The translations under genes and the position numbers were made by a program. From sequence record OQ939939: DNA of 64,000 bases; one strand, written 5' to 3'. The notes beneath the pieces are model-generated. The model saw nothing but the letters and a program-made list of their open reading frames with translations. It searched no databases and was not told the DNA's origin. The stretch comes from Escherichia phage SUT_E1620. This document shows positions 99 through 57,168 of this stretch, in pieces (position 1 is the stretch's first letter; each line of letters starts with the position of its first letter).

Positions 99-851
99 AT
101 GTCAGTATTAGTCGGTTTACATGGTGAGGCTGGTGCGGGAAAAGATACCGTTGCAGAATTAATGATTGACTGGTGTAATGACACGTTCCCAACGTGTTTA
201 TCCCGTCGTTACAGTTTTGCTAAACCCGTTTACGAACTTGCATCCGTAATCCTCGGGGTAACTCCAGAGTTTCTGGGAGAGCGCAGGGGAAAAGAGATTG
301 ACCAATGGTTTACGGTCACACAATCTCAATTGGAGCGAGCTAGAGACGTATGGTTTAAGTATGGTATCGATAAGTTTGAGGACTTCTCGTACGTTTGGCC
401 GATTTTTGAAGGAAAATACCTTGATCCTCAGCAGTTAATTGGGCAAGCTGATGATGCGCTGTATAGCGTGTTTATCTCCCCAAGAAAAATGCTACAGCTT
501 GTAGGTACTGAGTTAGGAAGGCAGCTGGTGCATGAACGCATTTGGCTCATAATTCTGGAGCAATCCATCGATAAAGACGACCCAGACGTCGCAATCGTTA
601 CCGATGTGCGTTTCCCCAATGAGGGAGAGCTAATCATGGAAACCAATACTCTAGATATGGATTCCATGCTTATTAAGGTTGAATCTGGTATTACTAATAA
701 GTATCGCATCGAGACAGATCATCCGTCTGAAAGCGGTATTCCTGAAAAATACATTTCTCATAAATTTGAGAATACCTTCAACGGACTTGATGCACTTCGT
801 ACCGATGTGTACCACTTCTGTGACTTAGAGCTAGAACCACTAGTTGGATAA
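99..851 (+). CDS. deoxynucleoside monophosphate kinase-like P-loop kinase
   Basis: 250 aa; N-terminal P-loop GLHGEAGAGKDT; SD AGGAAAG upstream; size and motif fit my recollection of the T5 dNMP kinase. Confidence 0.65.
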   Translation: MSVLVGLHGEAGAGKDTVAELMIDWCNDTFPTCLSRRYSFAKPVYELASVILGVTPEFLGERRGKEIDQWFTVTQSQLERARDVWFKYGIDKFEDFSYVWPIFEGKYLDPQQLIGQADDALYSVFISPRKMLQLVGTELGRQLVHERIWLIILEQSIDKDDPDVAIVTDVRFPNEGELIMETNTLDMDSMLIKVESGITNKYRIETDHPSESGIPEKYISHKFENTFNGLDALRTDVYHFCDLELEPLVG

Positions 852-8837: not shown

Positions 8838-9159
8838 TTTTAGTGAATTAACCCTGCTGGACGAGTTTCTAGGTTTTGTTACTGAACGTGGGTTTATTAA
8901 TGTAGATCCTCAGACACTAGAAGTCTTGCAATCCATCCAGAATAAAACTAAAACAGATCTGGAAGACTTATGGCGACCACTTTCTGAGCTAACTCCTCTT
9001 AATATGAAAGTGATTGTTAAAAATATTGAAACTGGTGAAGAACGTGAGATGGTTCGTAAAGAACTGGCTAATAGTTATTCTCCAGAGTCCCTAGTGATGC
9101 ATCATGACGATGAACCAGAAACACTTTGGACAGCCCATTATATTTGGCGTCTGCCTTGA
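8827..9159 (+). CDS. hypothetical protein
   Basis: 110 aa; overlaps the upstream gene. Confidence 0.35.
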   Translation: MKLNFSELTLLDEFLGFVTERGFINVDPQTLEVLQSIQNKTKTDLEDLWRPLSELTPLNMKVIVKNIETGEEREMVRKELANSYSPESLVMHHDDEPETLWTAHYIWRLP

Positions 9160-9259
9160 TTGATTTAACAACTGTTACGGCAATCCTAATCTTCGGTTTA
9201 GTGGTTGCCGTTTTCATAATCGTTGAGCAGGCCAAAGTAATACGGAGACTTAAAAATAG

Positions 9260-9460
9260 ATGATTAATTTTTATAACCCTAACTTGCAGAAAGCAACGTG
9301 GGATTACTTTATAATTCTACCAGCTTTTATGTTAAGTTGTGCAATCATTAACATTATGTATCAAGAAGCTGGTTGGACAGTCCAAGATTTCCACATTTCA
9401 CAAGTTCTTCCTTTCATGTATGAAGGCGTTATCGCAGCAATAAATGGAGTTCGTAAATGA
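9260..9460 (+). CDS. hypothetical small membrane protein
   Basis: 66 aa; hydrophobic. Confidence 0.3.
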   Translation: MINFYNPNLQKATWDYFIILPAFMLSCAIINIMYQEAGWTVQDFHISQVLPFMYEGVIAAINGVRK

Positions 9461-9924
9461 CAGCACTGCAAAGATTACAGAATTACTGGTTTGATGGCCA
9501 ATTTAATGATTTATTCATCCAGTTGTTTGTCGAAACGAACGGACGTTTTAATTACCGCTTCTTTAATACTTTCCATGAAACGAAGTTCTCGCATACAGAG
9601 ATTAACGCAGCGATTCAAGATCTCACTGGTTCTAAGGTAATTCCTTATCGTGATGTAGATTTTGCACCTGACTGTTTTGGTTTTGAACTGTTTAAGAAAG
9701 CATATAAGTTCGGTAAGTTCGAAGATGCACGACATTGGGTTCATGACTTCTGGTATAATACCGATATCGTCCCTAGCCGTGTACTGATCCTAAACTGGAT
9801 TGCTAAACAACATCCGCCGAAGGCACAATCGGCATTCCTTCCAACTGATACAGGAAATCTTTACCATGACACAAAAGAAAAATCCAGTGCTAGAGCAGAT
9901 GAAGCAGTTGGAGAAGCAGATTGA
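9457..9924 (+). CDS. hypothetical protein
   Basis: 155 aa; ATGA overlap with the upstream ORF. Confidence 0.35.
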   Translation: MTALQRLQNYWFDGQFNDLFIQLFVETNGRFNYRFFNTFHETKFSHTEINAAIQDLTGSKVIPYRDVDFAPDCFGFELFKKAYKFGKFEDARHWVHDFWYNTDIVPSRVLILNWIAKQHPPKAQSAFLPTDTGNLYHDTKEKSSARADEAVGEAD

Positions 9925-10249
9925 GGAAGGAAGCGTTGATGGACAGTCAATTGTCAATCATGCTTTTGATCTTACAGTAGGATGTGCTAATCCGCTGGTG
10001 GCAGGTGAAACAGCAGATATTCTTGGGCTTTTAATGGCAGTTGGCCAGTTAATCGAGATTACCCAAGAAGAGCTAGACAATGATGAAGAAGTAACTGTTC
10101 ATGATGTTCTTGGTGCTCTAGATCTGATTGTTAATGCCTATGCCTATAAACGCCGCCACTCAATTGATGAATATCTAGTTTCTCGTGAGATTACCGAATC
10201 TCTTCTGGAAACTGCTGATATGGCCTTAAACGGCAAGCAACTTCACTAA
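9866..10249 (+). CDS. hypothetical acidic protein (start uncertain)
   Basis: internal ATG at 9866 with AGGAAA SD; overlaps the 3-prime end of the previous ORF. Confidence 0.25.
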   Translation: MTQKKNPVLEQMKQLEKQIEEGSVDGQSIVNHAFDLTVGCANPLVAGETADILGLLMAVGQLIEITQEELDNDEEVTVHDVLGALDLIVNAYAYKRRHSIDEYLVSREITESLLETADMALNGKQLH

Positions 10250-13099: not shown

Positions 13100-13128
13100 T
13101 TGACATTATTTGAGCTGCATGTTATAAT
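13100..13128 (+). promoter_or_regulatory. consensus sigma70 promoter reading into the repeat region
   Basis: perfect TTGACA, 17-bp spacer, perfect TATAAT. Confidence 0.5.
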
Positions 13129-13571: not shown

Positions 13572-14172
13572 TCGGATTTGCACATTATGTTTCTAGAAAT
13601 TTATGGTCGGATTTGCACAAGTGCCTAAGTTTTTAGGAACACATAATCTCCTGAAAATAGCAGCATTATTTCGGGCCGAAGGCCCATGATTGCCTGAGTT
13701 TTTAGAGCCACAGGAATTTTCACTTGTCAAGCTATTTTGCCTCATTTTGCTAATAAAATTTCGCTTTATCTCCCTTAATCTCAATTCTAGCCAAAACATC
13801 CCGCATTATCCCCAAAAATGCAGCAAACCGGTGCTAAAGCACCATCACCGCTGCTCCTTCCGTAGTTCCTCCCAAAAACCTCGTCAGATTCGCACTTCTC
13901 CCCAAACTCACACAATCACACACCTTCTCATCGAAGTAACAAAAATCTTGTCGGTTTTGCACACCTTAACACTTGTCGGATTTGCACATACTCTAGTAAA
14001 TCCAGCTGGATTGCATCGCAGTTGCGGATTGCTGGAGTTTTTAGGAAAATTCATTGTCGGATTTGCACACTACCAAAAATTTTGGGGTCGGATTTGCACA
14101 CTACCAAAAATTGTCGGATTCGCACATACACGCCCGCACGTAACACCCGTGGAGCAATGTCGGATTTGCACA
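13572..14172. repeat. iteron array: 8 or more copies of 13-bp TCGGATTTGCACA
   Basis: copies at 13572, 13607, 13951 (TCGGTTTTGCACA), 13976, 14057, 14088, 14114 (TCGGATTCGCACA), 14160; two copies share extended context GTCGGATTTGCACACTACCAAAAATT. Confidence 0.8.
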
Positions 14173-14176
14173 AAAG

Positions 14177-14196
14177 CGCAGGGCAATTGCCCTGCG
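14177..14196. repeat. perfect 20-bp palindrome CGCAGGGCAATTGCCCTGCG
   Basis: self-complementary by direct reading; sits between the iteron array and the tandem repeats. Confidence 0.7.
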
Positions 14197-14201
14197 ACTT
14201 T

Positions 14202-14369
14202 GAATGATAATGTTTCTCATTTAAGAAGTGGAATGCGAATGATAATGTTTCTCATTTAAGAAGTGAAATGAGAACTATTCAAAAAGTGAAATGATTCTCA
14301 TTTAAGAAAGGAAATGATTATCAGTTAGACAGTGGAATGCGAATGATAATGATTCTCATTTAAGAATGG
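14202..14369. repeat. four tandem about 35-bp direct repeats (GAATGATAATGTTTCTCATTTAAGAAGTG family)
   Basis: units at about 14202, 14237, 14288 and 14341; related copies near 14700, 18110 and 23770. Confidence 0.7.
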
Positions 14370-14393
14370 AAGTGAGAAACACTGTTATTTAAG

Positions 14394-14502
14394 TTATCCA
14401 CAGACTTATTAACAGCACGATTTGATTTGACAGAATCCTAGCCATTTTGAGGCGTTATTAACAGACTTATCCACAGCTTATCCTACTGTATAAATATACA
14501 GT
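14394..14502. repeat. left arm of about 110-bp imperfect inverted repeat with two DnaA boxes
   Basis: TTATCCACA at 14394 and 14467; palindrome CTGTATAAATATACAG; reverse complement aligns to 17989-18096 at roughly 80 percent identity. Confidence 0.7.
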
Positions 14503-14759
14503 ATTCCTATGTAGTGAATAATTCTAATATAGGCCTAAAACGTCCTGAATCGCATTCTAACGCGTTTAATTTTGATGGAGATACTAAAACAAGGGCAAAA
14601 TTGGAGGAGGCTTAAAAATTAGTTAGCTTGCTAACGATCACACAAGGCGACACGTAACACCTTAATCATTAGCAGGCTAACCATCGCGGGCGCGGTTAAA
14701 TGAGAATCACTCTCATTTGAGAATTGGGGGCACTCCCTGGTAGTTGCGCCCCGTTATTA

Positions 14760-14954
14760 TTAGTCTGGTAGTCGATGCGTGATCTTTTCCTCCTCCCCGT
14801 AGGAATCCACCAAATGCTGATAATAACCATCGGCATCATAAATAACGCTATCATATTCGCCACGCTCGACCGCTTGCCGATTCTCCGGCGTATCGGGCAC
14901 GTAAAAAACATCAACCATTGTACTGATTTTGGTTACAACAATTTTATTGCTCAT
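14760..14954 (-). CDS. hypothetical acidic protein (cassette gene)
   Basis: ATG at 14954 with AGGGG SD (the track ORF extends to a TTG at 14984); last gene of the minus-strand operon. Confidence 0.35.
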   Translation of the reverse strand: MSNKIVVTKISTMVDVFYVPDTPENRQAVERGEYDSVIYDADGYYQHLVDSYGEEEKITHRLPD

Positions 14955-15054
14955 AATAACCCCTAGTAAATATATTTTTGCCAATAGTGGCGAACGTTAT
15001 CGCCACCAGCGGAATCATTTGCAGCCTCAACATTACCCGCGAAAATATATAATC

Positions 15055-15399
15055 TCATTGCGCCACCTTTCGAAACGCTGTTTCAATACTATCCGCAGTG
15101 GATTGAATATACGCGCCTTTCATTATCAGGCGCTCGGTGCATATCTTGCGAAAAATATTAATAAAATCATCTTCATTTTCTGCAATTAATGCTTCACCCA
15201 TAACCTGAACGTCACAAGATGCAAAGGTCAAAAATTGAAACGCTAGTTCACGGGCAACGACCGCATTGATTTTATAATGCGCCTTGCCCTCATAAATATT
15301 AATAACGCCCTTATAAGCTGGTGAAAGCTGATTCAAATAGTTTGCTAGTAATGCCGGACGGCAATTAGCAACAAAACGATTGCCTTCATAAATAACCAT
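15055..15399 (-). CDS. hypothetical protein (cassette gene)
   Basis: ATG at 15399 lies 1 nt after the upstream stop (the track ORF extends to a TTG at 15438). Confidence 0.4.
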   Translation of the reverse strand: MVIYEGNRFVANCRPALLANYLNQLSPAYKGVINIYEGKAHYKINAVVARELAFQFLTFASCDVQVMGEALIAENEDDFINIFRKICTERLIMKGAYIQSTADSIETAFRKVAQ

Positions 15400-15400
15400 T

Positions 15401-15613
15401 TTATAACACCCCACGAAACGCAGCGTAAAAGGTGGCAAAGTGTTTAACCGTTTCAGCGATCACGTTGCCGCGCTTGTCGAATTTTTTCTCAGTAACACGG
15501 AAGGCGTTTTTATTTCGCGCTACATATTCAATTTTACAATCTTCCCGCTCGAACGTGTTAACGTCCACCAGCTTAAAGCCTTTTGAACGTGCAAGGGAAA
15601 CGTTACGAATCAT
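15401..15613 (-). CDS. hypothetical basic protein (cassette gene)
   Basis: 70 aa; SD AAGGAG; tightly packed. Confidence 0.4.
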   Translation of the reverse strand: MIRNVSLARSKGFKLVDVNTFEREDCKIEYVARNKNAFRVTEKKFDKRGNVIAETVKHFATFYAAFRGVL

Positions 15614-15615
15614 TT

Positions 15616-15765
15616 TTATTCTCCTTTACTAGTCATGCAGCCCAGCAGATAAGAAAATACAGCGATACCCGCACCAATAATAACCGCGTGAACGTCGAAA
15701 GCTATTGCAAACAAAGATAAAATAGCGCCCAAGATACCCGCCAGAATAGCTCGAAAAATAACCAT
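15616..15765 (-). CDS. small hydrophobic membrane peptide (about 49 aa)
   Basis: hand-translated MVIFRAILAGILGAILSLFAIAFDVHAVIIGAGIAVFSYLLGCMTSKGE; SD AGGAGG; not in the ORF track because it is under 60 aa. Confidence 0.35.
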   Translation of the reverse strand: MVIFRAILAGILGAILSLFAIAFDVHAVIIGAGIAVFSYLLGCMTSKGE

Positions 15766-15814
15766 TTGTGATAGCCTCCTAGTTATCGGGGGATATAATA
15801 TCCCCCGTTACTAA

Positions 15815-16045
15815 TTACATTAAAACAATTTTTGCAGCTTGTTTTTTGGTGCAATGTTCCGCCTTCAGGGTATCCAGCAAAAAGCCAGCCGTTTGCTGAT
15901 CGATTTTATCGGCGTTATATAGTTCCTGAATGGTATTATAGGTTTTAGCAATACCGAACTCCTGCACCATTTCATAGATGACAGCACGATTAGACACCCA
16001 GCCTTGAGCGGTGAACAGATGACTAGCAGAAGAATAAGCAACCAT
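15815..16045 (-). CDS. hypothetical protein (cassette gene)
   Basis: ATG at 16045 preceded by GGAGG (the track ORF extends to a TTG at 16078). Confidence 0.4.
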   Translation of the reverse strand: MVAYSSASHLFTAQGWVSNRAVIYEMVQEFGIAKTYNTIQELYNADKIDQQTAGFLLDTLKAEHCTKKQAAKIVLM

Positions 16046-16108
16046 TTTAAGCCTCCAAATTTTTGGGAAAATTTTCAACCGTCCTTAAACGGTGTAAAGG
16101 CATTATAA

Positions 16109-16138
16109 CAAAAAAGGCCACCAATTATGGCGACCTTT
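16109..16138 (-). terminator. possible rho-independent terminator (minus strand)
   Basis: imperfect hairpin AAAGGTCGCC...GGTGGCCTTT followed by U-run in the minus-strand transcript, between the 164-aa gene and the downstream genes. Confidence 0.3.
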
Positions 16139-16151
16139 ACAAAACTTTACA

Positions 16152-16646
16152 TTAAACTACTTGTAATGTTTCAATATTGAAACATCGTTTCAATTCGTCA
16201 TGCAAAACAGCGTATTCATCCCATCGGGTACTATCAGGGATATAAACAAGCTGTTTTAGTCGGTTTGCGTATATTACCGCTTTGTTACCAACTATCTCGA
16301 CGCCGCCATATTTAATAATTAATTTCATGACGGAATTAATAGGATCGCCGCCGTTTACATATGTGCCGGATTTACTTAATTGATAATGATAAAGGCTTGC
16401 ATATACATTATCATTCTCATACCATTCGCCAGTATCCTCGTCTTCATAGCCATCGCTACCAAAACGAGAAGCATTATCAATAGCCATTTCATGAGCGAAA
16501 GCGTCCAGATCCGTACCAGCAGGAACAAAGTATTCCTCGGTATTCCCCTCGCCGCAATAGCCAGTATGGCAATCGACTAAAATGATCATATCATGTTTAG
16601 CCGTGCTCACTTCCCCTAGCGAGAAGCCGTATTTTTCCTCAGCCAT
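16152..16646 (-). CDS. highly acidic protein of unknown function
   Basis: 164 aa; about 28 Asp/Glu against 12 Lys/Arg, concentrated in the N-terminal 80 residues; SD AGGAGG. Confidence 0.5.
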   Translation of the reverse strand: MAEEKYGFSLGEVSTAKHDMIILVDCHTGYCGEGNTEEYFVPAGTDLDAFAHEMAIDNASRFGSDGYEDEDTGEWYENDNVYASLYHYQLSKSGTYVNGGDPINSVMKLIIKYGGVEIVGNKAVIYANRLKQLVYIPDSTRWDEYAVLHDELKRCFNIETLQVV

Positions 16647-16711
16647 TAGTTAGCCTCCTATTAATTAACAAGGGAATAGTAAAGCGGGGTAACAATCCCC
16701 GCTTAATATTA

Positions 16712-17722
16712 TTACTCGCTTTCGGTGTTAGTGGTAAAAGTAGAAATATCGATACCTTTTACCATTTCATCAATCATTTCAGCGATGTTAAAACTTTGCA
16801 CCATTTCCAGCATTGCCGCTTCCATAGCCGCCCCTGCTACCGCTTTCGCCTTTTGGTTATTTGGGGCGTACTGGTCAACCGCTACACTCAGCAGGTTAGC
16901 AATCACTACTCGACCAATAGGCGTATCGATATAACCTTTGATCATGAATGGTGCTTTTTTAGCCGCTACTTTCGTAATTTGAGTTAATGCAATTTTACCC
17001 GCTTCCAGTTTTGCAGCATTTACAACAGCGGATTTATTGGCGGCAACGATATTGGCGATCTTGGTCATGGTATTTTTTCCTTTGTTTTCAGTGATTTGAG
17101 TATTAACGCTTTGAGTGTTAGAATTTACAGCATGTTTTTCCGTGCTGTCAATGATCTGATTCTCATCTTTCCAGAAAATAAAACCCGCTTCATGTACTAG
17201 TTCATTATATATATACGGGTATAATTTCGATGGTAATAAAAAATTACCGTCGCCATCAAAAGCCATTACCGCCGTATATTGAGATCCATCACTATCAGGC
17301 CTATGCCATCCAGCAGATAAATACTTCCAGATAACATCTAAAAACCCCTCAAGGCTAGAAAGTCCGTTTATTAAATCAAGCCCAATAAGCTCAAAATTAT
17401 TTATATTAAATGATTGACGGCCTGAATTGCTATGATACGCAACAATATTATTACCCTGCGCAATAATAAAATCGGTATCCGGCCCCGCTCCCTTGCCTGT
17501 AAAGATATGGCAATCACGATTATATAAGATAATCGTTGCCCCCTGCTTATATAAGGGTAGAAAACTATCCATATCATAGGCATCATAATCATCAAAAAAG
17601 TTTTGGTGAATAGTTTCAGCCTTGTTAATAAAATGTTTAATGCTGGTTGTTCTGCTACCATCCAGCAGGTTACGCAGCGCACCTTTTAAGACGGTTGCGT
17701 TATCTGGTTTATATAGCCTCAT
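16712..17722 (-). CDS. two-domain protein of unknown function
   Basis: 336 aa; SD GGGAGG; N-terminal about 190-aa domain, polar linker, Ala/Val-rich amphipathic C-terminal domain. Confidence 0.5.
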   Translation of the reverse strand: MRLYKPDNATVLKGALRNLLDGSRTTSIKHFINKAETIHQNFFDDYDAYDMDSFLPLYKQGATIILYNRDCHIFTGKGAGPDTDFIIAQGNNIVAYHSNSGRQSFNINNFELIGLDLINGLSSLEGFLDVIWKYLSAGWHRPDSDGSQYTAVMAFDGDGNFLLPSKLYPYIYNELVHEAGFIFWKDENQIIDSTEKHAVNSNTQSVNTQITENKGKNTMTKIANIVAANKSAVVNAAKLEAGKIALTQITKVAAKKAPFMIKGYIDTPIGRVVIANLLSVAVDQYAPNNQKAKAVAGAAMEAAMLEMVQSFNIAEMIDEMVKGIDISTFTTNTESE

Positions 17723-17988
17723 TTGTTGGCCTCCCTCGTTAATCGGTGAGTGAATGATAAAGGCAATTTTCTAGCATAGGCAAATATTATTTTACCTTTT
17801 TATTTTCCTTGCCTAGCGCCTAGTTTTATGCTAACCGCGCAGCGGTACAGTAAAGAGCAAAACACGGTGAAGCCACCAGGGCGACGGGTGAAGGCTTTAC
17901 TTTAATATTACCCCACCGCATTTAGCTCGTTAGAAAGCGTTTTAGGCCGCTTAAAATTGATTGCAGTTGTTAACACTACCCATTTACC

Positions 17989-18096
17989 CTGTATATTTAT
18001 ACAGTAGGATAACATGTGGATAAGTCTGTGGATAAGTCCTTATATCGCCGCCTATCGTGTCAAATCATTTTGTGCTGTTAATAACATTGTGGATAA
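17989..18096. repeat. right arm of inverted repeat with three DnaA boxes
   Basis: TGTGGATAA at 18015, 18027 and 18088; palindrome CTGTATATTTATACAG; inverted copy of 14394-14502. Confidence 0.7.
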
Positions 18097-18936
18097 CTTA
18101 AATGATAGTGGTTCTCACTTAGGACGATAGTTTCTTATAGTTATTATTTCTATCGGTTACGATTTCTTATAATTATTATTTCTCATTAATTTATAAGTAT
18201 ATTATATATCATGAAATAGTTAGTTGGCTAATGAGATTTTCCGTGATTAATAGTCTGCTAATAGTTCCGGCTGTTACAATCCACCAGCATGATTATCATC
18301 CTAGCAACTATTAGTCTGCTATCTTTCCGATGCATACTAACAAATAAAAGTCAATTAATTTATTTCATAAAATAAGTAGTTATCCACTGGAAAATAAAAG
18401 TCAAGTGGATAACTAGGAAAATTTCATTTTTGCTTTTGGGGATAAGTTATCAACAAGGCTAGAATGCGCCTAAAACGCCCTAGAACGCGATGAAAGTTTT
18501 AGCCATGCCATTGCATTGCCTACCCTCGTTTATCGCTACCACGAGCTTTTTAGTTTTTGTCAAGTAGGGCAAGGCAAATATAAATGAAAAAATTACTTGC
18601 CAACCTGCTGGGTTTTATGGTATTCGCGCGCCCGTTTCCTTTAATTTTAGTGCGCCGCGCCCAGGTCGCCGCACGGTGTCCGGTGGCATTTTGTCTTTAC
18701 GTTTCTTTACAAAAATAAGGTTGCGCCATTTTTACTATTTGCTATTATTTATCTCGTAGGGAGGCAATGACGAACTACACGGCGGGAAGTTTACCGCCAC
18801 GCTCTTTAAAAATTGGGTATATCTTAAAGCCTATCGGCGGTAAACTTATTCATTATAAGGAATCGACGATATGAAACAGACGCTTTTGATCACTGGCAAG
18901 CCTAGCAAGGCACTAGATAGCAAAACAAAAAACTTG

Positions 18937-18964
18937 TTGACAGTAGCGCAAAGATCGGTAAAAT
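18937..18964 (+). promoter_or_regulatory. consensus sigma70 promoter
   Basis: TTGACA, 16-bp spacer, TAAAAT. Confidence 0.5.
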
Positions 18965-19070
18965 ACCGATTCACGCAGTACAAGAAAGGTCGCCAGCAAG
19001 GTTTAGAAATGATCTGGAGAAATATTATGATTGACCTGAAAGAAAATCATAAAAAACTGCAAAAAATTGT

Positions 19071-19099
19071 TTGACAACCTAGCCGATAGGCTTTAAGAT
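19071..19099 (+). promoter_or_regulatory. consensus sigma70 promoter
   Basis: TTGACA, 17-bp spacer, TAAGAT; about 200-nt leader before the ATG at 19301. Confidence 0.5.
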
Positions 19100-19226
19100 G
19101 TACCCAGTTCGATAAGAGCGATAACTTGATAAAATTTGACGGTCGGTGCTTACCATAATGCGCCCCGCCCCCTAACGGGATATAGCGGCCTACGTGGAGT
19201 TCTTTAAATTGATTAAACTGGCGAGC

Positions 19227-19277
19227 GGATTGTTACTTATTACCTGCTACTTTCTAGCAGGTAATGCGGAACAATCC
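19227..19277 (+). promoter_or_regulatory. long two-tier hairpin in the 5-prime leader
   Basis: GGATTGTT/AACAATCC outer stem enclosing TACCTGCTA-CTTTC-TAGCAGGTA inner stem, just upstream of the SD. Confidence 0.4.
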
Positions 19278-19300
19278 ATCAAATAACTGGAGTTTATATT

Positions 19301-19552
19301 ATGCAAAACGTTATTACCGCGCCTAAAATTGGTCAATCTGTTTTTATTCCTTTCGTTACTAAAACGGACGAATTAACCGGAAAAGCCGAACGTATTAAAG
19401 GCGCGGCGCTTATGCCTTTCGATACAATCGACGCGGTATACGCTGAAAATGAACGTAGTAACAACGGCAAGCCTGTTTTTAACGTTCGCGTTAAATCCGG
19501 CGACGTTGTAAAGATCATTCAGAAGGATGATAAATGGCAAGCCATAGCATAA
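19301..19552 (+). CDS. hypothetical protein
   Basis: 83 aa; SD CTGGAG. Confidence 0.4.
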   Translation: MQNVITAPKIGQSVFIPFVTKTDELTGKAERIKGAALMPFDTIDAVYAENERSNNGKPVFNVRVKSGDVVKIIQKDDKWQAIA

Positions 19553-19652
19553 ATTAGTGTTACTTTTATATTCCCCTGAAATATGGGGAATATATGGATT
19601 AACATTAGTTAATCATAATCCCTTAATTAATAATTGAATGGAGTATTAAATT

Positions 19653-20069
19653 ATGTCTAACGTTAAAACCGAAAAAACCGCAAAATTCTCTTGGAACGAA
19701 GAAAACACCGAAAAGGCTGTTTCTATGTATTCTGAAATGGTCGCTAAAAGCGGGATTGAGTTTGCGAATAGTGACGGCTTAAAAGAAATTGCCGCCGCCG
19801 TTGGCGCTGCTAGTCCGGTGTCTGTACGTTCTAAACTGACAAGCGCAAAAGCGTACCAGAAAAGCGATAAACCGCGTAAAGTTGGCGGCGGGTCTAGTGT
19901 CCGTAAAGCTCACTATGTGCGCGTCATTGCTAAACATGCCATTGATAGCGGCATTGTAAAAGACGCTGACGATCTGGCAAGTCTGGAAAGTGCAAAACTG
20001 GAAACGCTGGACGCCGTAGCTCAATTGTTAGGCGTAGCGGAGGAAGTAAAACAGGCCGCAGGTGAATAA
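19653..20069 (+). CDS. hypothetical protein
   Basis: 138 aa; SD TGGAG. Confidence 0.4.
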   Translation: MSNVKTEKTAKFSWNEENTEKAVSMYSEMVAKSGIEFANSDGLKEIAAAVGAASPVSVRSKLTSAKAYQKSDKPRKVGGGSSVRKAHYVRVIAKHAIDSGIVKDADDLASLESAKLETLDAVAQLLGVAEEVKQAAGE

Positions 20070-20127
20070 ATTTTAATTAGCGGGGAATATTCCCCGCTAT
20101 AATTTCCCTTTGACCGGAGTTATTAAA

Positions 20128-20355
20128 ATGATTTTCTTCCCTAGTGAAGCGTTTATTTTAGGTTTATTTATAGTTGCCGCTATGTTTATATTTAATTACG
20201 GCAAATATATAATCTCTATTATCGGCATTAATTCAGCTTATGCCGCTGATATGTTTAAACGTCAAGCTAATAAACAAAAATATCTGGCGATTATATTTTT
20301 AACGCTGGCTATTAGTTGCGGGTTTAGTTCTAGTCTTATGCCAATTCTAGAATAA
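20128..20355 (+). CDS. small membrane protein
   Basis: ATG at 20128 with GGAG SD (the track ORF starts at a TTG at 20110); two hydrophobic helices. Confidence 0.35.
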   Translation: MIFFPSEAFILGLFIVAAMFIFNYGKYIISIIGINSAYAADMFKRQANKQKYLAIIFLTLAISCGFSSSLMPILE

Positions 20356-20463
20356 TATTGCAAATTATAACGCCTTTTAAATTGTCCTCACTTCAGGCAA
20401 GGCGTTATATTTGGCAATATTGCCAGTATTAATATTTATCCCTTTATAGGAGTTGATTTAGTT

Positions 20464-22134
20464 ATGAATATTTCCGCAGAAAAACAAGCTCAAATTTTGA
20501 AAATGGCCGCTGATTTTAATTTCTATGGTAAGCGTTTACGCGCTACTAAATTGGAAGTTTGCGACGATATTTCAAAAGCTGTTTATGATACGCCGAAACA
20601 TTCGACCGCAATTTGTGACTGGCTGGAAGCAAATAAGCCAGCGAAACCGAAAGCGGCAAAAGCTGAAAAGGCGATTAAAAATGATGATCGCCCCGAAGCG
20701 GCGGGAATTGTTTCTAGTACCGTTGAACAATGGGAAGTTAAATCCGGTCGCCGTTTTATTCTAACGTCGATTCAAAATAATACTTTCCCGCATAAAAACT
20801 TTTTAGCAAGTCTGGAAAAATTCGCTGAATATTGCGGCGCTGAATTGCTGATTAGTAAATTCATTTATAATAAAAATGGATTCCAGAACGGGGAAGGGGC
20901 AAACGGTATTAAATACGATCCCGCATTTGATAAATATGTTTGTGATAAAAACGTATTTTTAAATAACCGCCGCTTTGCTTTCATGGCTGAAATTAATGTT
21001 TTACCAACGGCAGATTATCCGCTTTCAGGATTCGCAGAAACCGCCACGGCTTTAAATATCGAAGGTCTGGCAATTGGTCACGCAAAAATTACCGCTGAAA
21101 GTGTTCCCGCGCTTAAAGGTGAAGTAGTGCGCCGTATGTATTCAACCGGAACGGCAACGCTCAAAAACTACATTCAGCAGAAAGCCGGACAAAAGGCCGA
21201 GGCGCTGCATAATTTCGGTGCGCTTATTGTCGAGTTCGACGAAGACGGTGAGTTTTTTGTTCGCCAGCTTGAAACGATGGATGAAAGCGGGGTATTTTAT
21301 GATCTGAATGTTTGTGCTACTCCCGCCGGATGCTATGAAACAACGGGACACGTTTTAGGTTTACAATATGGTGACATCCACGCTGAAAAATTAGATGAAG
21401 AATGCGCCGCTGCATCTTGGGGGCATGGCGACACCTACGGGCTTGTGGATATTCTTAAACCAAAATATCAATTCGTACACGACGTGCATGATTTTACATC
21501 ACGCAACCATCACAACCGCGCATCCGGTGTATTCCTAGCAAAACAATACGCCGCCGGACGTGATAAAGTTATTGATGATCTTATCGATACGGGGCGCGTG
21601 CTGGAATCAATGGAACGTGATTTCTCGCAAACAATCATTGTTGAATCTAATCACGATTTGGCGCTATCCCGTTGGCTTGATGATCGTAATGCTAACATTA
21701 AAGACGATCCAGCAAACGCGGAACTATATCACCGCCTAAATGCCGCGATTTATGGAGCTATTGCAGAAAAAGACGATACTTTCAACGTGCTAGATTATGC
21801 GCTGCGCAAGGTTGCAGGTTGTGAGTTTAACGCCATTTTTCTAACTACTGACCAATCTTTCAAGATTGCAGGCATTGAATGCGGCGTACACGGTCACAAC
21901 GGCATTAACGGCAGCCGTGGCAATCCTAAACAGTTTAAGAAATTGGGCAAGCTAAACACGGGACACACCCATACCGCTAGCATTTACGGTGGCGTTTATA
22001 CCGCTGGCGTAGCTGGTAGTCTGGATATGGGTTACAACGTTGGCGCGTCAAGCTGGACGCAAACGCATTTAATTACCTATGCAAACGGTCAGCGCACTTT
22101 GATTGACTTTAAAAACGGTAAATTTTTCGCGTAA
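20464..22134 (+). CDS. A1: A1-like pre-early metallophosphatase
   Basis: 556 aa, the size I recall for T5 A1; phosphoesterase motifs YGDIHAE, HGDTYG, RNHHN, GVHGHNG, GHTHT; SD TAGGAG. Confidence 0.65.
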   Translation: MNISAEKQAQILKMAADFNFYGKRLRATKLEVCDDISKAVYDTPKHSTAICDWLEANKPAKPKAAKAEKAIKNDDRPEAAGIVSSTVEQWEVKSGRRFILTSIQNNTFPHKNFLASLEKFAEYCGAELLISKFIYNKNGFQNGEGANGIKYDPAFDKYVCDKNVFLNNRRFAFMAEINVLPTADYPLSGFAETATALNIEGLAIGHAKITAESVPALKGEVVRRMYSTGTATLKNYIQQKAGQKAEALHNFGALIVEFDEDGEFFVRQLETMDESGVFYDLNVCATPAGCYETTGHVLGLQYGDIHAEKLDEECAAASWGHGDTYGLVDILKPKYQFVHDVHDFTSRNHHNRASGVFLAKQYAAGRDKVIDDLIDTGRVLESMERDFSQTIIVESNHDLALSRWLDDRNANIKDDPANAELYHRLNAAIYGAIAEKDDTFNVLDYALRKVAGCEFNAIFLTTDQSFKIAGIECGVHGHNGINGSRGNPKQFKKLGKLNTGHTHTASIYGGVYTAGVAGSLDMGYNVGASSWTQTHLITYANGQRTLIDFKNGKFFA

Positions 22135-22187
22135 TTAAATTATCCCCTAGCGGCTTGAAATATAGCCGCTATTACAGGAGTCAAAAA

Positions 22188-22445
22188 ATGAAAGTTACAT
22201 TACCCAAAACATTGGACGAAAAAGCATTCATCTCACCGGATGAAATGGAATCCGATAAAGTTTACAGCTTTGGGCCTATCCTAGCCGCCAAAACTAATAC
22301 GGATGGCATTATTTCCATCGATTATCGTGATAATGATGTTGTTCCTTTTGATGATGATGGCGCTTTTTATGAGTGGCTAAGCGATAATAATTTACCCGTA
22401 AACGGTGAATTAACGCCGTACCAGATGCAGATTATTATCAAATAA
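22188..22445 (+). CDS. hypothetical acidic protein
   Basis: ATG at 22188 with CAGGAG SD (the track ORF starts at a TTG at 22155). Confidence 0.35.
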   Translation: MKVTLPKTLDEKAFISPDEMESDKVYSFGPILAAKTNTDGIISIDYRDNDVVPFDDDGAFYEWLSDNNLPVNGELTPYQMQIIIK

Positions 22446-22484
22446 ATTAAATCCCTATATTAAACTAATTGGAGTTTTATAAGT

Positions 22485-22877
22485 ATGAAAAAGCAAAATA
22501 TTCCATTCGATCGCGCTCAGTCTTCCATTGTTCTGGTTTATTCTAATGGTGAACGTTACCACGTCGAGGCGGGGCACGTTATTGATGAATTATTAGATTT
22601 CAATGACGCTTTACAGGTTACTACCTTTGCCTATACGCAAGGCAAACTAACCAGCCATATTAAAGCAAAAGGCGTTTATGTTGACACGATGAAACAAGAA
22701 ACAATCATTATTGACGCGGTAAAATCTGGTCTAGCCTTTGCAGTTGTCGCGCCTTGCCCCGCTTGCCTTGATGATCAGCTAGCGAGCGCAAAGGTATACA
22801 CCTGCGCGGGGATTCGTTCTAGCGTATCCGGTGAGGATGTTAGTTTTATCGCTGATGCGTTGGCTTATGGTCTTTAA
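22485..22877 (+). CDS. hypothetical protein (A2-like by position and size only)
   Basis: 130 aa; SD TTGGAG; lies between the A1-like and dmp-like genes. Confidence 0.3.
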   Translation: MKKQNIPFDRAQSSIVLVYSNGERYHVEAGHVIDELLDFNDALQVTTFAYTQGKLTSHIKAKGVYVDTMKQETIIIDAVKSGLAFAVVAPCPACLDDQLASAKVYTCAGIRSSVSGEDVSFIADALAYGL

Positions 22878-22956
22878 TAGTTGATTTATTATTACCCGCT
22901 TATAAATAGCGGGTAATGCTGAATTAATCTAATCCCTTAAATGGAGAACGTAACAA

Positions 22957-23691
22957 ATGAATAAAGCTATTATGAATATTTCCCGCAGCTTCCCGCATAT
23001 TTCCCGCGTCATGATTTGGGATTTAGACGGCACTATCGTTAATTCTTTCCATCGTGTAGCGCCTTGCTTTGATAGTGAGGGCAATTTAGATTTAAATAAG
23101 TATAAAAATGAAGCGTGTAAACATCATTTAATAATGCAAGATACTTTATTGCCATTGGTTGAATATATGCGCCAGTGCATGAATGACGCAAATACTTTAA
23201 ACATTATTTGCACCGCTCGACTGATGAGTAAGTCGGACTATTATTTCTTGCGCAAACAAGGCTTGCGCGGTCGTGGTAATAGTAATATCCGCGTATTTTC
23301 CCGCGACACACTGCATAAATATTTTAAAGCTGATAAGGTTAGCGAAATATACCACAGCAAAGACGCAGTATATAAATCTTATTATTTTGAATTATTTAAA
23401 CAGTTATATCCGAACGCTGATTTTACAATGATTGATGATCATAAAGGCGTACTATCAGCGGCGGCATCATACGGATTTAAAACGCTGGACGCCCAAGCCG
23501 TTAATGATATTCTATCAATCGGCGTGGCATTAATAGGTGAAACCTTTATTGATGAATCTCTCGACGATGATAATGATTATCAATTCCTAGCCGATCGTTT
23601 GAAATTATGTTGGGAAGGTATGACCGAAGAAGAACGCGCAGAATATAGTACCACACCGCAACAATTCATTGATAAATTAAAAGTTGCCTAA
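22957..23691 (+). CDS. dmp: HAD-family 5-prime-deoxyribonucleotidase (dmp-like)
   Basis: 244 aa; HAD motif I WDLDGTIVNS; SD ATGGAG; size matches my recollection of T5 dmp. Confidence 0.6.
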   Translation: MNKAIMNISRSFPHISRVMIWDLDGTIVNSFHRVAPCFDSEGNLDLNKYKNEACKHHLIMQDTLLPLVEYMRQCMNDANTLNIICTARLMSKSDYYFLRKQGLRGRGNSNIRVFSRDTLHKYFKADKVSEIYHSKDAVYKSYYFELFKQLYPNADFTMIDDHKGVLSAAASYGFKTLDAQAVNDILSIGVALIGETFIDESLDDDNDYQFLADRLKLCWEGMTEEERAEYSTTPQQFIDKLKVA

Positions 23692-23854
23692 CAATTAAAA
23701 ATAAAATAGTCACACTGTGTAATGATAACATGGTGTGACTATTAGCTTGCTAAGTAAGGGGGCGGTAATGAGACTCATTCTCATCTAGGGAACCTCTGGG
23801 CACACCTTCATGTGTAATCTTATGAGATTTCGAGAATTGGTAATTAGCGCTAAC

Positions 23855-55329: not shown

Positions 55330-57168
55330 TTATTCTAAGTAGGAAAATCCTTCTGCATCTTTTTTAACAGTAATCTTATGGGCTAATGGATGCGTATGCC
55401 CATGAGAAACAATGATAGAATTCAGACTATCTTCCTCATTTAATAATTCAACGAGAGTATCAAGTCCTTTCGTATCAATAAAGCTAATAACTTCGTCAAG
55501 GAACAGAAGATTAATATTAACTTTACTAATAGATGTTAACAGCATTCGAATAGCTAACAGAGTTGCTAGGTTAATTCTACTCTGCTGACCAGTAGAGCAG
55601 TTCTCCATACTGGTACGGTTTCCATCATTGAAGATTACTACTTGTAATTTAGTTTCATCAAGCTCAAATCCAAGTGCGAACTTACCACCAGTCATAATAG
55701 AAAGATATTTATTAATCAATTCCTCAAATACTTTCACACTATGTTCTAGTTTATATCCTACCAGATTTTTCAATGCAGCAATCAGAATATCAAGATCAGC
55801 AACAGCTTCTGATACTCCATCCAGTTTGGACGTTATCTCAGACATTTCTGCCTCAGCTTTTTCAATCTGTTCTAGTTTCGCTTTATACTTTGCATTGGCT
55901 AACTCGACATTTGCATTATGCTCTTTGGCAATTGCAACTTTAGAACGTCCATCAGCGATTTCCTGTTCTAATTGTCGGATTTGCACCTGTAGGATTTGCA
56001 CATTGAGTTCTTCAAAAGAAGCGTCACTCATTGAATTTTTGAACTCGTCTCTAGCTGCTACTGCCTTATCCAAAGCATCCTTAGCTCTAGTATACGCAGT
56101 GTACTCGACTTGTTCTTTCTTCAACTGCTCCAATGTAGCTTCAAGAGATTGTTTCTCTTTGAACAGAGGATCGTATTCTGTTCTAGCCATATCCATTGCT
56201 TTTTGAGCAGCAGTTGTATCAAGATGCGTACCACAAGTAGGACATTCAGTATTTGAAGCCTCTTGCTTAAACTTCTGATAACGTTTCTTGACTTCTCCCG
56301 CACGTGAGGTAACAATCGTTAAGTCACGCGTAACACTTGAGATCTCTTCAGATTGGTCAGTGGGCGCAGGGAAATTTTTGAAAGGCTCGAAAGATTGTTC
56401 GGCAACTTGTACAGCTTTGTCCAAATTACGGAGTTTAGTAATATTAGCCTCTTGTGACTTGGCTAATGCCGCCTTAATTTTCGATTCAGTAAGTTCTTGT
56501 GCTAACGGTTCTTCATCAAATTCTGGAACTTCAACTGGCTCCTGTAAACTTCCGAGATTACCTTTTCCATTGAGGATCTTCGTAATTACGGCCATCTGGC
56601 CTTGCAAGTTACTTAACGTACTTGCCACTTCTTTACGATCAGCCTTAATAGTTTCTGACATCTCTTTATACTGTTCCTGATTGAACAGATTAACAAGAAA
56701 AGCTTTACGTGTTGCATCAGTTGCTTTGAGGAAGTCTAGATTGGAACCAACAGATTGATAGATTAGTTTAGTGAATGTTTGGAAGTCACCACCCATAATC
56801 TCTTCAATCATCTTGTACGTTTGAGTTGCTGTGTGTCCACTGATATCTTCTCCATTCTTAATCAGTGTAACCTTAGCAGTTGATTTAACTACTTTATGCA
56901 ATTCATACTCATCTTCATCTTTCGAGAAGTAAGCATGCATATCATACTCTTTCTTCGGAGAACCCCAAGAGAATAGGGCGTCCTTCTTGATACCACGTGA
57001 GTTCTTGTTATAAAACAATTCCTCAATAACAGTAGCAATAGTGGACTTCCCTAGACCGTTTCCTCCGATTAACTGAGTAACTGGATTCTTATCGAAATGA
57101 ATTACGATATCCTTACCGTAAGACATAACGTTGCTGAATTTTAGTGTCTTAATTATAATCTTTGACAT
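55330..57168 (-). CDS. SbcC/Rad50-like recombination ATPase
   Basis: ATG at 57168 (the track ORF extends to 57243); Walker A GGNGLGKST; central coiled coil; C-terminal LLFLDE. Confidence 0.7.
   Translation of the reverse strand: MSKIIIKTLKFSNVMSYGKDIVIHFDKNPVTQLIGGNGLGKSTIATVIEELFYNKNSRGIKKDALFSWGSPKKEYDMHAYFSKDEDEYELHKVVKSTAKVTLIKNGEDISGHTATQTYKMIEEIMGGDFQTFTKLIYQSVGSNLDFLKATDATRKAFLVNLFNQEQYKEMSETIKADRKEVASTLSNLQGQMAVITKILNGKGNLGSLQEPVEVPEFDEEPLAQELTESKIKAALAKSQEANITKLRNLDKAVQVAEQSFEPFKNFPAPTDQSEEISSVTRDLTIVTSRAGEVKKRYQKFKQEASNTECPTCGTHLDTTAAQKAMDMARTEYDPLFKEKQSLEATLEQLKKEQVEYTAYTRAKDALDKAVAARDEFKNSMSDASFEELNVQILQVQIRQLEQEIADGRSKVAIAKEHNANVELANAKYKAKLEQIEKAEAEMSEITSKLDGVSEAVADLDILIAALKNLVGYKLEHSVKVFEELINKYLSIMTGGKFALGFELDETKLQVVIFNDGNRTSMENCSTGQQSRINLATLLAIRMLLTSISKVNINLLFLDEVISFIDTKGLDTLVELLNEEDSLNSIIVSHGHTHPLAHKITVKKDAEGFSYLE

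Follow-up and report, generated by a model that had tools for sequence, protein, structure and literature searches.

The perfect palindrome and the repeats that follow it, at positions 14,177 to 14,369 of the DNA of Escherichia phage SUT_E1620 (record OQ939939), were shown by alignment and by the order of their elements to be the core of a T5-type injection stop signal (iss), located in the long terminal repeat. We analysed a stretch of 64,000 nucleotides, hereafter called the window. As judged from the comparison with other phages, the palindrome is built on the phage nick motif, which reads AAAA^GCGCAGGG on the + strand, and the repeats belong to a motif family that was shown, by the positions of its copies, to mark the terminus, the ends of the pre-early operons and the transfer boundary. 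How T5 halts the injection of its genome after 8% and then restarts it is a question more than 50 years old, and the iss has been described as a "bewildering" set of repeats. The comparison narrows the experiments to be done: the palindrome resolves into a nick motif and a hairpin, of which the nick motif alone is family-wide; the repeats reduce to one palindromic motif family, found also at the terminus and at the pre-early operon ends, from E. coli to Vibrio phages; and LexA boxes, DnaA boxes and Fur-like sites are carried by a single module. Each of these points can be converted into a binding or deletion experiment.

The feature, though real and conserved, is not new, and the earlier note had not identified it as the iss region of T5. 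We rate it as already known because every element is named in the T5 literature and annotated in the T5 record. Four observations seem to be absent from the sources consulted: that the nick motif at the boundary is conserved family-wide, that near-consensus LexA boxes are present, that the units resemble Fur boxes and that the terminus-proximal copy is deeply conserved. We present them as leads and not as results. In particular, Davison's comparative preprint makes no mention of nicks, LexA or Fur. The features discussed below are listed in Table 1.

Table 1. Positions of the sequence elements in the window and their main characteristics.
Feature	Position	Strand	Remarks
DRD repeats, TGTCGGATTTGCACA and variants	13882..14172	+	last copy abuts the nick motif; more copies at 13575-13620
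Intrinsic-terminator-like hairpin, tail CUUUUGUGCA	14167..14196	-	8-bp stem, 7 G-C pairs, loop AAUU
T5-type nick motif A^GCGCAGGG	14176..14183	+	palindrome left arm plus one base; consensus match
Perfect 20-bp palindrome CGCAGGGCAATTGCCCTGCG	14177..14196	.	exact
Repeat units 1 and 2	14200..14266	+	35-bp period; cores AATGATAATGTTTCTCATT at 14203-14221 and 14238-14256
Degenerate shortened units	14266..14335	+	23-bp period; half-site AAATGAGAAC at 14266-14275, AAATGATTCTCATTT at 14289-14303, AAATGATTATCAGTT at 14312-14326
Repeat unit 5	14339..14370	+	core AATGATAATGATTCTCATT at 14342-14360; holds the best Fur-box-like site of the window, TGATAATGATTCTCA
Two DnaA/DnaA-like box pairs, IRD'-spacer-IRC'	14394..14475	+	described for T5-like phages by Davison
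Near-consensus LexA (SOS) box TACTGTATAAATATACAGTA	14484..14503	.	conserved in the alignment of relatives
Solitary perfect-arm copy AATGAGAATCACTCTCATT	14699..14717	+	after GGGCGCGGT; ~45 bp past the last pre-early ORF
Divergent copy AATGATAGTGGTTCTCACT	18101..18119	+	part of inverted repeat IRD of "Repeat Region 2"; the two pre-early operons lie on either side
Terminus-proximal copy AATGAGACTCATTCTCATC	23767..23785	+	~75 bp after the dmp stop; adjoins the genome left end

Correspondence with the T5 injection stop signal

By its sequence matches, the window is that of a T5-like phage, ~90% identical to known Tequintaviruses. It is reversed relative to the standard T5 map, since most of the records, T5 included, match it on the minus strand. 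Positions 13600-14800 match 454 phage records at ~85-91% identity, nearly all of them from T5-like phages of Escherichia and Salmonella, and the absence from relatives that the earlier note had named as fatal to its proposal is thus not what was found, the region being kept in hundreds of phage records. No plasmid match was found for 13600-14800, and a plasmid origin, or plasmid iterons, was rejected on this ground. A host-derived sequence was also rejected, a search of 5,426 complete E. coli genomes having given 0 matches, also when run in distant mode, as was a known RNA family, the Rfam matches being at chance level and far below gathering scores.

The genes A2 (19653-20069), A1 (20464-22134) and dmp (22957-23691), all on the + strand, are syntenic with those of T5 and chee24 (both reverse-complemented), and the terminal-repeat annotations of both phages span the stretch homologous to the palindrome and the array. 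In the T5 RefSeq record (NC_005859), a misc_feature at 9140-10149 in the left terminal repeat is annotated "injection stop signal (iss)", and inside it a "major DNA single-chain interruption" is placed at 9748^9749 on the minus strand; this nicked strand of T5 is the + strand of the window. According to Davison, the position of the T5 iss was mapped by shear length alone. The same preprint names the iss stretch "Repeat Region 3", a region whose order is conserved in T5-like phages and to which no function is assigned, and gives this order as palC, palD, IRD', DRE/DRB, IRC', DRC with palE-palI, palJ and nine DRD. Heusterspreute 1987 and Wang 2005 are cited there for the iss/Repeat Region 3 of the T5 left terminal repeat.

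We aligned the region with T5 and 22 other distinct relatives; the alignment was collinear, and the correspondence with T5 is base by base. Like the T5 iss, the region is part of the long direct terminal repeat, in which it separates the pre-early genes from the inner boundary, and consists of a large non-coding stretch with ordered palindromes, IRD'-spacer-IRC', DRC/DRE and DRD, with a pair of DnaA/DnaA* boxes, 3 bp from each other, on either side of the spacer. At the same genomic position as in T5, a LexA-like palindrome, two DnaA-box pairs, AATGAGAAT-type repeats (which are DRC/DRE and palE-palI), the GC-rich palindrome palJ and DRD follow each other in order, with ~86-90% sequence identity. 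The palindrome, which aligns to T5 9729-9748 (GCAGGGCAATTGCCCTGC), is most likely the palJ of T5 nomenclature, because it sits directly before the DRD repeats, as the published order would have it. The differences from T5 are small. They concern the palindrome, which at 20 bp is longer than that of T5 (18 bp) and shorter than that of other relatives (22 bp), the number and sequence of the units, and the solitary copy at 14699, which is kept here and whose place in T5 is taken by gene T5.017 and a different terminator.

Beyond the array, the two DnaA pairs read TTATCCACA-GAC-TTATTAACA (14394-14414) and TTATTAACA-GAC-TTATCCACA (14455-14475). DnaA boxes are not significantly enriched over the whole window (11 against 7.5 expected), and the paired arrangement alone is distinctive. 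The LexA box also follows the DnaA pairs in the Proteus, Aeromonas and Vibrio relatives, and CTGG is found there in the Klebsiella relative. The comparison thus shows a module made of the nick motif, repeats, DnaA pairs and a LexA box to be conserved across genera, as far as aligned sequence can tell. On the other side of the palindrome, a perfect promoter is present at 13100-13128, for which no exact T5 equivalent was found.

A palindrome apparently built on the nick motif

The 20-bp palindrome that the earlier note had described was confirmed as exact. The published consensus for the major nicks of T5 is R^GCGCRGG, and A^GCGCAGGG at 14175/14176 on the + strand matches it on the nicked strand. 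In T5, whose whole genome we reassembled, GCGCAGGG is present in six copies. The minus strand carries four of them, at 8.0, 18.3, 32.6 and 99.6%, each coinciding with one of the five major nick sites annotated in the T5 record, which places these sites by map position and consensus and not by base-level mapping. At the remaining annotated site, the sequence is GG^GCGCGGGC in T5 and GG^GCGCAGGG at the homologous position of the window, 56364. The window contains 4 copies of GCGCAGGG (0.63 expected). Three are on the + strand, at 281, 14176 and 56364, and are the homologs of the T5 18.5, 7.9 and 64.8% sites, whereas the fourth is on the - strand and lacks the preceding purine. From the matches in T5 and in the window, taken with the consensus, we consider the palindrome to be built on the nick motif, and we predict a single-strand interruption between 14175 and 14176 of the + strand, equivalent to the "7.9%" major nick of T5. 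The + strand reads AAAA^GCGCAGGG at the homolog of this T5 site, and the homologs of the 18.5% and 64.8% sites are on the same strand. The site at 14176 differs from the others in that it alone is embedded in a palindrome.

The same motif was found well beyond the close relatives. In all six distant Demerecviridae examined (Klebsiella phage Riker, Proteus phage M4H10_20, Aeromonas phage AhSzw-1 and Vibrio phages pVp-1, D325 and AG74, with A1 identities of 32-74%), R^GCGCAG(G/A) lies 3-5 nt after the last DRD-type repeat, so that the composite formed by the last DRD, 3-5 nt and GCGCAG is kept throughout. Neither a second arm nor a T-run is present at the nick spot in any of the six. As the motif is retained without these additions, the nick motif is the ancient, family-wide element, and the palindrome and the terminator are, on this comparison, an elaboration in the T5/Epseptimavirus lineage.

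The earlier note had proposed that the palindrome might be a cruciform, and several properties of the arms support a structure of this type. The arms, GCAGGGCA and TGCCCTGC, are invariant in the 23 distinct relatives compared, apart from a change in phage FFH1, and the full length of the palindrome is 18, 20 or 22 bp depending on the phage. In four Epseptimavirus-like relatives (L050, L053, L067 and L068), an A-rich insert of 7-9 nt occupies the centre of the palindrome and the arms are kept. In FFH1, the palindrome reads GCGGGGGCAATTGCCCCCGC, a compensatory change mirrored on both arms; as this variant was found in FFH1 only, it represents a single event, and a lineage of such variants was rejected. 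Conserved arms, a variable centre and a compensatory change fit a hairpin or stem-loop and not an operator with fixed spacing. The folding energy of the hairpin was -10.4 kcal/mol as single-stranded DNA (z = -4.9) and -20.4 kcal/mol as RNA (z = -4.4), with folding z-scores of -4.3 to -4.9 overall.

Read on the - strand, the hairpin together with CTTTTGTG is the sole terminator-like site between 13000 and 15000, and the T-run is invariant in 23 aligned relatives. It faces the rightward pre-early operon (in T5 orientation), the pre-early ORFs of which occupy 14760-17722 on the - strand. By its form, it would qualify as a Rho-independent terminator, with a GC-rich stem of 8 pairs, a 4-nt loop and the U-rich tail CTTTTGTGCA at the end of a transcription unit. 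It departs from the usual type in having a short, interrupted U-run (CUUUUGUG), a stem that is at the same time a DNA nick motif, and a location ~560 nt past the last ORF. Since the palindrome and the U-run are absent in other genera, termination cannot be a family-wide role of the site. The T5 record contains another predicted terminator upstream, at 9275-9296.

The repeat array and its dispersed copies

Behind the palindrome, the earlier note had seen four tandem repeats of 35 bp. The repeats are real, but the regular arrangement did not hold: we found three good units, with cores at 14203, 14238 and 14342, plus two or three degenerate ones, at spacings of 35, 46, 23 and 35 bp. This is the result of a repeat search that returned five copies starting at 14200, 14235, 14281, 14304 and 14339, with identities of 100, 91, 66, 66 and 81%. 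With TRF, 2.1 copies of a 35-bp unit were obtained over 14202-14274 (94% matches), along with a looser 23-bp period over 14244-14339. Each unit contains a 19-bp quasi-palindrome, AATGAKAAT-N-ATTCKCATT, and a matrix made from 85 distinct units of the relatives reads GAATGNG-AATGAKAAT-S-ATTCKCATT-TAARAA, its most conserved positions being the two half-sites. Following the suggestion that copy number be compared among relatives, we observed that whole units were gained or lost among 23 of them, the degenerate stretch at 14266-14335 being the place where this happens. Such a gain and loss of whole units is typical of a protein-binding array. In the Vibrio phages, unrelated tandem repeats occupy the position of the array.

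The possibility that the repeats are coding sequence, which would have overturned the earlier interpretation, was rejected, each of the six frames containing 4-7 stop codons. The relatives, too, have stops in every frame or in nearly every one, a single frame being open in 2 of 22. An ORF of 189 aa (13690-14259) that overlaps the array, annotated as hypothetical in some GenBank records, belongs to no Pfam or PHROG family.

The array is part of a dispersed family. Divergent copies had been announced near 14700, 18110 and 23770, and they exist, at 14699, 18101 and 23767. With up to 2 mismatches allowed, AATGAGA-N5-TCTCATT matches exactly 14203, 14238, 14342, 14699, 18101 and 23767, that is 6 matches in the window against 0.39 expected, a number that 0 shuffles reached. 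All six lie inside the terminal repeat, in agreement with the idea of a family confined to one region. A strict unit pattern matched 14203, 14238, 14342 and 14699 (0.00 expected). The copy at 18101 falls within the IRC-spacer-IRD arrangement that Davison described for Repeat Region 2.

Two of the copies outside the array also occur in distant phages. Positional homologs of the 14699 copy are present in two Vibrio phages, pVp-1 (GGGCGCGGTCAAATGAGAACTATTCTCATTT) and D325, in which it is shorter and more divergent; in pVp-1, the equivalent position carries GGGCGCGGT-YAAATGAGAAY…TCTCATTT. Similarly, GGTAATGAGACTNNTTCTC follows dmp, at the place equivalent to 23767, in Aeromonas phage AhSzw-1 and in Vibrio phages pVp-1 and AG74. 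In the distant genera, the terminus and the stretch beyond the LexA box carry perfect copies, and the 14699 and 23767 copies are, by these positional homologies, very old. In two Vibrio phages, where this part of the genome is visible, a further copy lies ~45 bp upstream of A2; unlike these phages, the window has no copy that we could find upstream of A2.

A proposed mechanism and the candidate protein A2

The reading that we prefer, and to which we give an even chance taken as a whole, is that of an iss core in which a hairpin carrying the nick motif is combined with a protein-binding array that holds and then releases the entering DNA. Virion DNA would carry the "7.9%" interruption at 14175/14176, and the second arm would convert the nick motif into a stable hairpin. 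On the - strand, this hairpin with its U-run would most likely end the rightward pre-early transcripts inside the first-step DNA. The repeats would form an iteron-like array of 19-bp quasi-palindromes, with a basic period of ~23 bp, bound by a dimeric sequence-specific protein, for which our preferred candidate is the phage pre-early protein A2. The bound array, together with the DnaA pairs and the LexA box, may then constitute a nucleoprotein complex that holds the entering DNA until A1 and A2 release it. T5 mutants deficient in the interruptions are viable, so the nick itself is probably not what stops transfer. The isolation of interruption-deficient T5 mutants is announced in the title of a published paper.

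A2 has been described as a dsDNA-binding dimer that is required together with A1 for second-step transfer (Davison preprint). All genomes examined encode it, and all copies of the motif lie on DNA that is already inside the cell when A2 acts. The predicted structure of A2 is all-helical (pLDDT 83). A Foldseek search of this model against the PDB returned nothing with E < 0.7, and a PDB sequence search returned nothing; with no significant fold match, the model neither supports nor excludes A2 in this role, and nothing in it ties A2 to the motif. We consider it possible, at somewhat less than even chances, that the repeat-binding protein is A2 or another phage protein. Beside this and the host regulator Fur, what probability remains goes to another host protein or to a purely structural role of the repeats.

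Possible Fur boxes and host-factor sites at the boundary

The alternative that survives best is that the repeat units are sites for the host protein Fur. On this reading, dimers of Fur-Fe2+ would polymerise along the array and so contribute to holding or marking the entering DNA, and, with the DnaA and LexA boxes, the boundary of the first step would be a landing pad for host proteins. We regard this as unlikely, but the scores of the units are as good as those of genuine Fur boxes, so that a host protein has to be taken seriously as an alternative. Like a Fur box (GATAATGATAATCATTATC; 7-1-7 motif TGATAATNATTATCA), the unit is a 19-bp AT-rich quasi-palindrome of AATGAT-like hexamers. The site in unit 5 is one mismatch from the 7-1-7 motif, and matches with 1-2 mismatches are located at 14205, 14240 and 14344; in the whole 64 kb, four sites fall within 2 mismatches of the 7-1-7 core, three of them in the array and one in dmp. 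We also built a position weight matrix from nine published iron boxes. Its top seven matches in the window are in the array, at the terminus copy and at the 3' end of dmp, and 7 matches reach at least 15 bits against 0.31 expected. The phage sites score 15.6-20.3 bits, within a range of 6-27 bits obtained for real boxes by leave-one-out. Moreover, the T5 unit AAATGAGAATCATTATC and the iron box GATAATGAGAATCATTATT have 15 consecutive bases in common, array-type units of the Klebsiella and Proteus phages score 15-16 bits, and the adjacent DnaA and LexA boxes indicate that sites for host factors are selected in this region.

The evolution of the motif argues against Fur. The copies with the deepest conservation, namely 14699, 23767 and their homologs in Vibrio or Aeromonas phages, are of the form TGAGA-N5-TCTCA, with G/C where Fur prefers T/A and with a variable centre in place of AAT-N-ATT, so it is not the Fur-type bases that long-term selection has kept. 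In the matrix of array units, G and T are mixed at positions 6 and 15, and C predominates at position 14. The phage family thus differs from the Fur box by G/C at the symmetric position 4/12, by a variable centre in its oldest copies and by extra conserved flanks, since the conserved positions reach well beyond the Fur footprint (TTTAAGAAGTGGAATG, for example). In addition, the Vibrio phages lack Fur-like units in the array, and we found no link in the literature between Fur and the first-step DNA of T5. We hold it to be a minority possibility that AATGAKAAT-N-ATTCKCATT represents genuine Fur boxes that form, with the DnaA pairs and the LexA box, a conserved host-protein landing pad at the first-step boundary. 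If it were true, the T5 genome would pause and resume its entry under the control of host proteins, and possibly of the iron status of the cell, as would suit phages whose entry receptors are iron receptors regulated by Fur. The nick motif, which stands beside the pad in all genera compared, would then belong to one device with it.

Less likely roles: packaging, replication and operator

A role of the motif family in packaging is improbable. According to this proposal, the terminase or another maturation protein would bind the copies close to the left terminus and to the inner end of the terminal repeat, and would thereby define and duplicate the repeat during the processing of concatemers. 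In favour of such a signal, one copy is located at most a few tens of bp away from the left terminus, a placement kept from E. coli phages through to those of Vibrio, and the array is ~300-500 bp away from the inner end of the repeat, a boundary drawn by homology with T5 and chee24. However, the array is not at the boundary itself, the 14699 and 18101 copies are internal, and the boundary differs among annotated relatives whereas the array stays put.

Still more doubtful is an origin of replication or DNA processing, with iterons and DnaA boxes, or a nick-hairpin comparable to the nic of rolling-circle or oriT systems that would prime strand-displacement synthesis by the T5 polymerase. Direct repeats with a period of ~23 bp beside clustered DnaA boxes are indeed shared with the iterons of plasmid and phage origins; there are four DnaA-type boxes, the nick motif abuts a hairpin, and the T5 record notes that the polymerase performs strand displacement from nicks. 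But the units here are palindromic, no initiator or relaxase gene adjoins the array, and the other nick sites have neither iterons nor hairpins. In the literature as summarized by Davison, the T5 origins are near the middle of the genome and the replication genes are not on the first-step DNA. The array thus has neither the adjacent initiator nor the mapped origin that define replication iterons.

Least probable of all is the other suggestion of the earlier note, a symmetric operator of a dimeric regulator centred on AATT, with the repeats as auxiliary sites: the perfect symmetry over 20 bp and the invariance of the arms in most close relatives would suit it, but the inserts found in four relatives break the fixed spacing of the half-sites and leave the stem intact, the arm is the known T5 nick consensus, which has no partner arm at other nick sites, and the Klebsiella, Proteus, Aeromonas and Vibrio relatives keep the GCGCAG motif alone, without the symmetry. 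The palindrome itself is present as a single copy in the window, a further point against an operator. When the window was simulated 100 times with a first-order Markov model, only 3 of the simulations gave a perfect palindrome of at least 20 bp; the real window has three such palindromes, all of which lie within the terminal repeat.

The nick motif and the palindrome at the first-step boundary

The last DRD repeat, GTCGGATTTGCAC, is followed after 3-5 nt by R^GCGCAG(G/A), the major single-chain interruption motif, and all the Demerecviridae genera examined keep this order at the corresponding position. Because the composite is kept so widely, the nick motif at the boundary of first-step transfer must predate the palindrome by far. 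Seven of the 23 distinct relatives (L021/L023, L011/L033, L014/L025, L015, L007/L026, L032 and L013) have a palindrome of 22 bp, GCGCAGGGCAATTGCCCTGCGC, and both strands consequently carry the full nick motif with its preceding purine, at a distance of 22 bp. Nicking at both motifs would produce a staggered double-strand break. Elsewhere in the window the nick motif lies on the same strand as in the iss at the homologs of two T5 major nick sites, of which the 64.8% site reads GCGCGGGC in T5 and GCGCAGGG in the window. The terminal repeat also holds two further perfect palindromes of at least 20 bp, and the one directly after A2 is probably a terminator.

Positions of the features in the window and in relatives (L079-L084 are divergent phages of Klebsiella, Proteus, Aeromonas and Vibrio)
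Feature	Window	Other genomes	Remarks
Nick motif GCGCAGGG	281-288 (+)		homologous to T5 18.5% site
Sigma-70 promoter	13100-13128 (+)		perfect TTGACA-17-TATAAT, upstream TG
DRD core ATTTGCACA	13606-14172		
Last DRD repeat with nick motif	14158-14183	L079 4495-4519; L080 3645-3670; L081 3083-3105; L082 6444-6470; L084 164-192	
LexA (SOS) box TACTGTATAAATATACAGTA	14484-14503		near-consensus; adjoins DnaA box pair
Palindrome ATGTTTCAATATTGAAACAT	16166-16185		within an ORF
LexA (SOS) box, twin of TACTGTATAAATATACAGTA	17987-18006		near-consensus; adjoins DnaA box pair
Palindrome TAGCGGGGAATATTCCCCGCTA	20078-20099		directly after A2
Fur 7-1-7 match TGATAATGATTATCA	23568-23582	T5 233-247; L079 13865	in dmp
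Terminus copy GGTAATGAGACTNNTTCTC(ATT)	23764-23785	L081 9081; L082 13429; L084 7108	
Nick motif GCGCAGGG	56364-56371 (+)		homologous to T5 64.8% site
Motif copy ACTGAGAAA(C/T)ACTCTCATT		L082 9906-9924; L084 3350-3368	~45 bp upstream of A2

Copies of the motif outside the array

The terminus copy of the quasi-palindromic motif lies 50-75 bp 3' of dmp, adjoining the left genome terminus. It is kept from E. coli phages to Aeromonas and Vibrio phages, and in T5 the corresponding sequence has diverged and stands about 17 nt from the physical end of the genome; this copy could serve as an end-recognition or end-protection site. The copy upstream of A2 in the Vibrio phages pVp-1 and AG74 is suggestive of A2 autoregulation. 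In the window, the stretch upstream of A2 yielded no such copy.

Candidate host-factor sites

A CTGT-N8-ACAG box like the two LexA boxes also follows the DnaA pairs in T5-like phages of Proteus, Aeromonas and Vibrio; the Klebsiella relative has CTGG at this spot and does not match. LexA is not mentioned in the Davison preprint. The DRD core shares 8 of the 9 bases of TTWTNCACA, the DnaA-box consensus, and from this match the nine DRD copies could act as weak DnaA sites. In phages of Escherichia, Salmonella and Klebsiella, the 3' end of the dmp coding region contains a site that fits the Fur 7-1-7 core without mismatch, which may be a mere consequence of a run of Asp/Asn codons. The predicted promoter stands just beyond the last early ORF and is directed into the non-coding iss region; T5 gave no exact counterpart.

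Assembly of the terminal repeat

The window contains a single copy of the terminal repeat (~13700-23850). Early genes adjoin it on the low-coordinate side, and on the other side, from ~23855 onwards, come homologs of the T5 genes that immediately precede the right repeat. It follows that the assembly behind this sequence has been collapsed or permuted across the genome ends.
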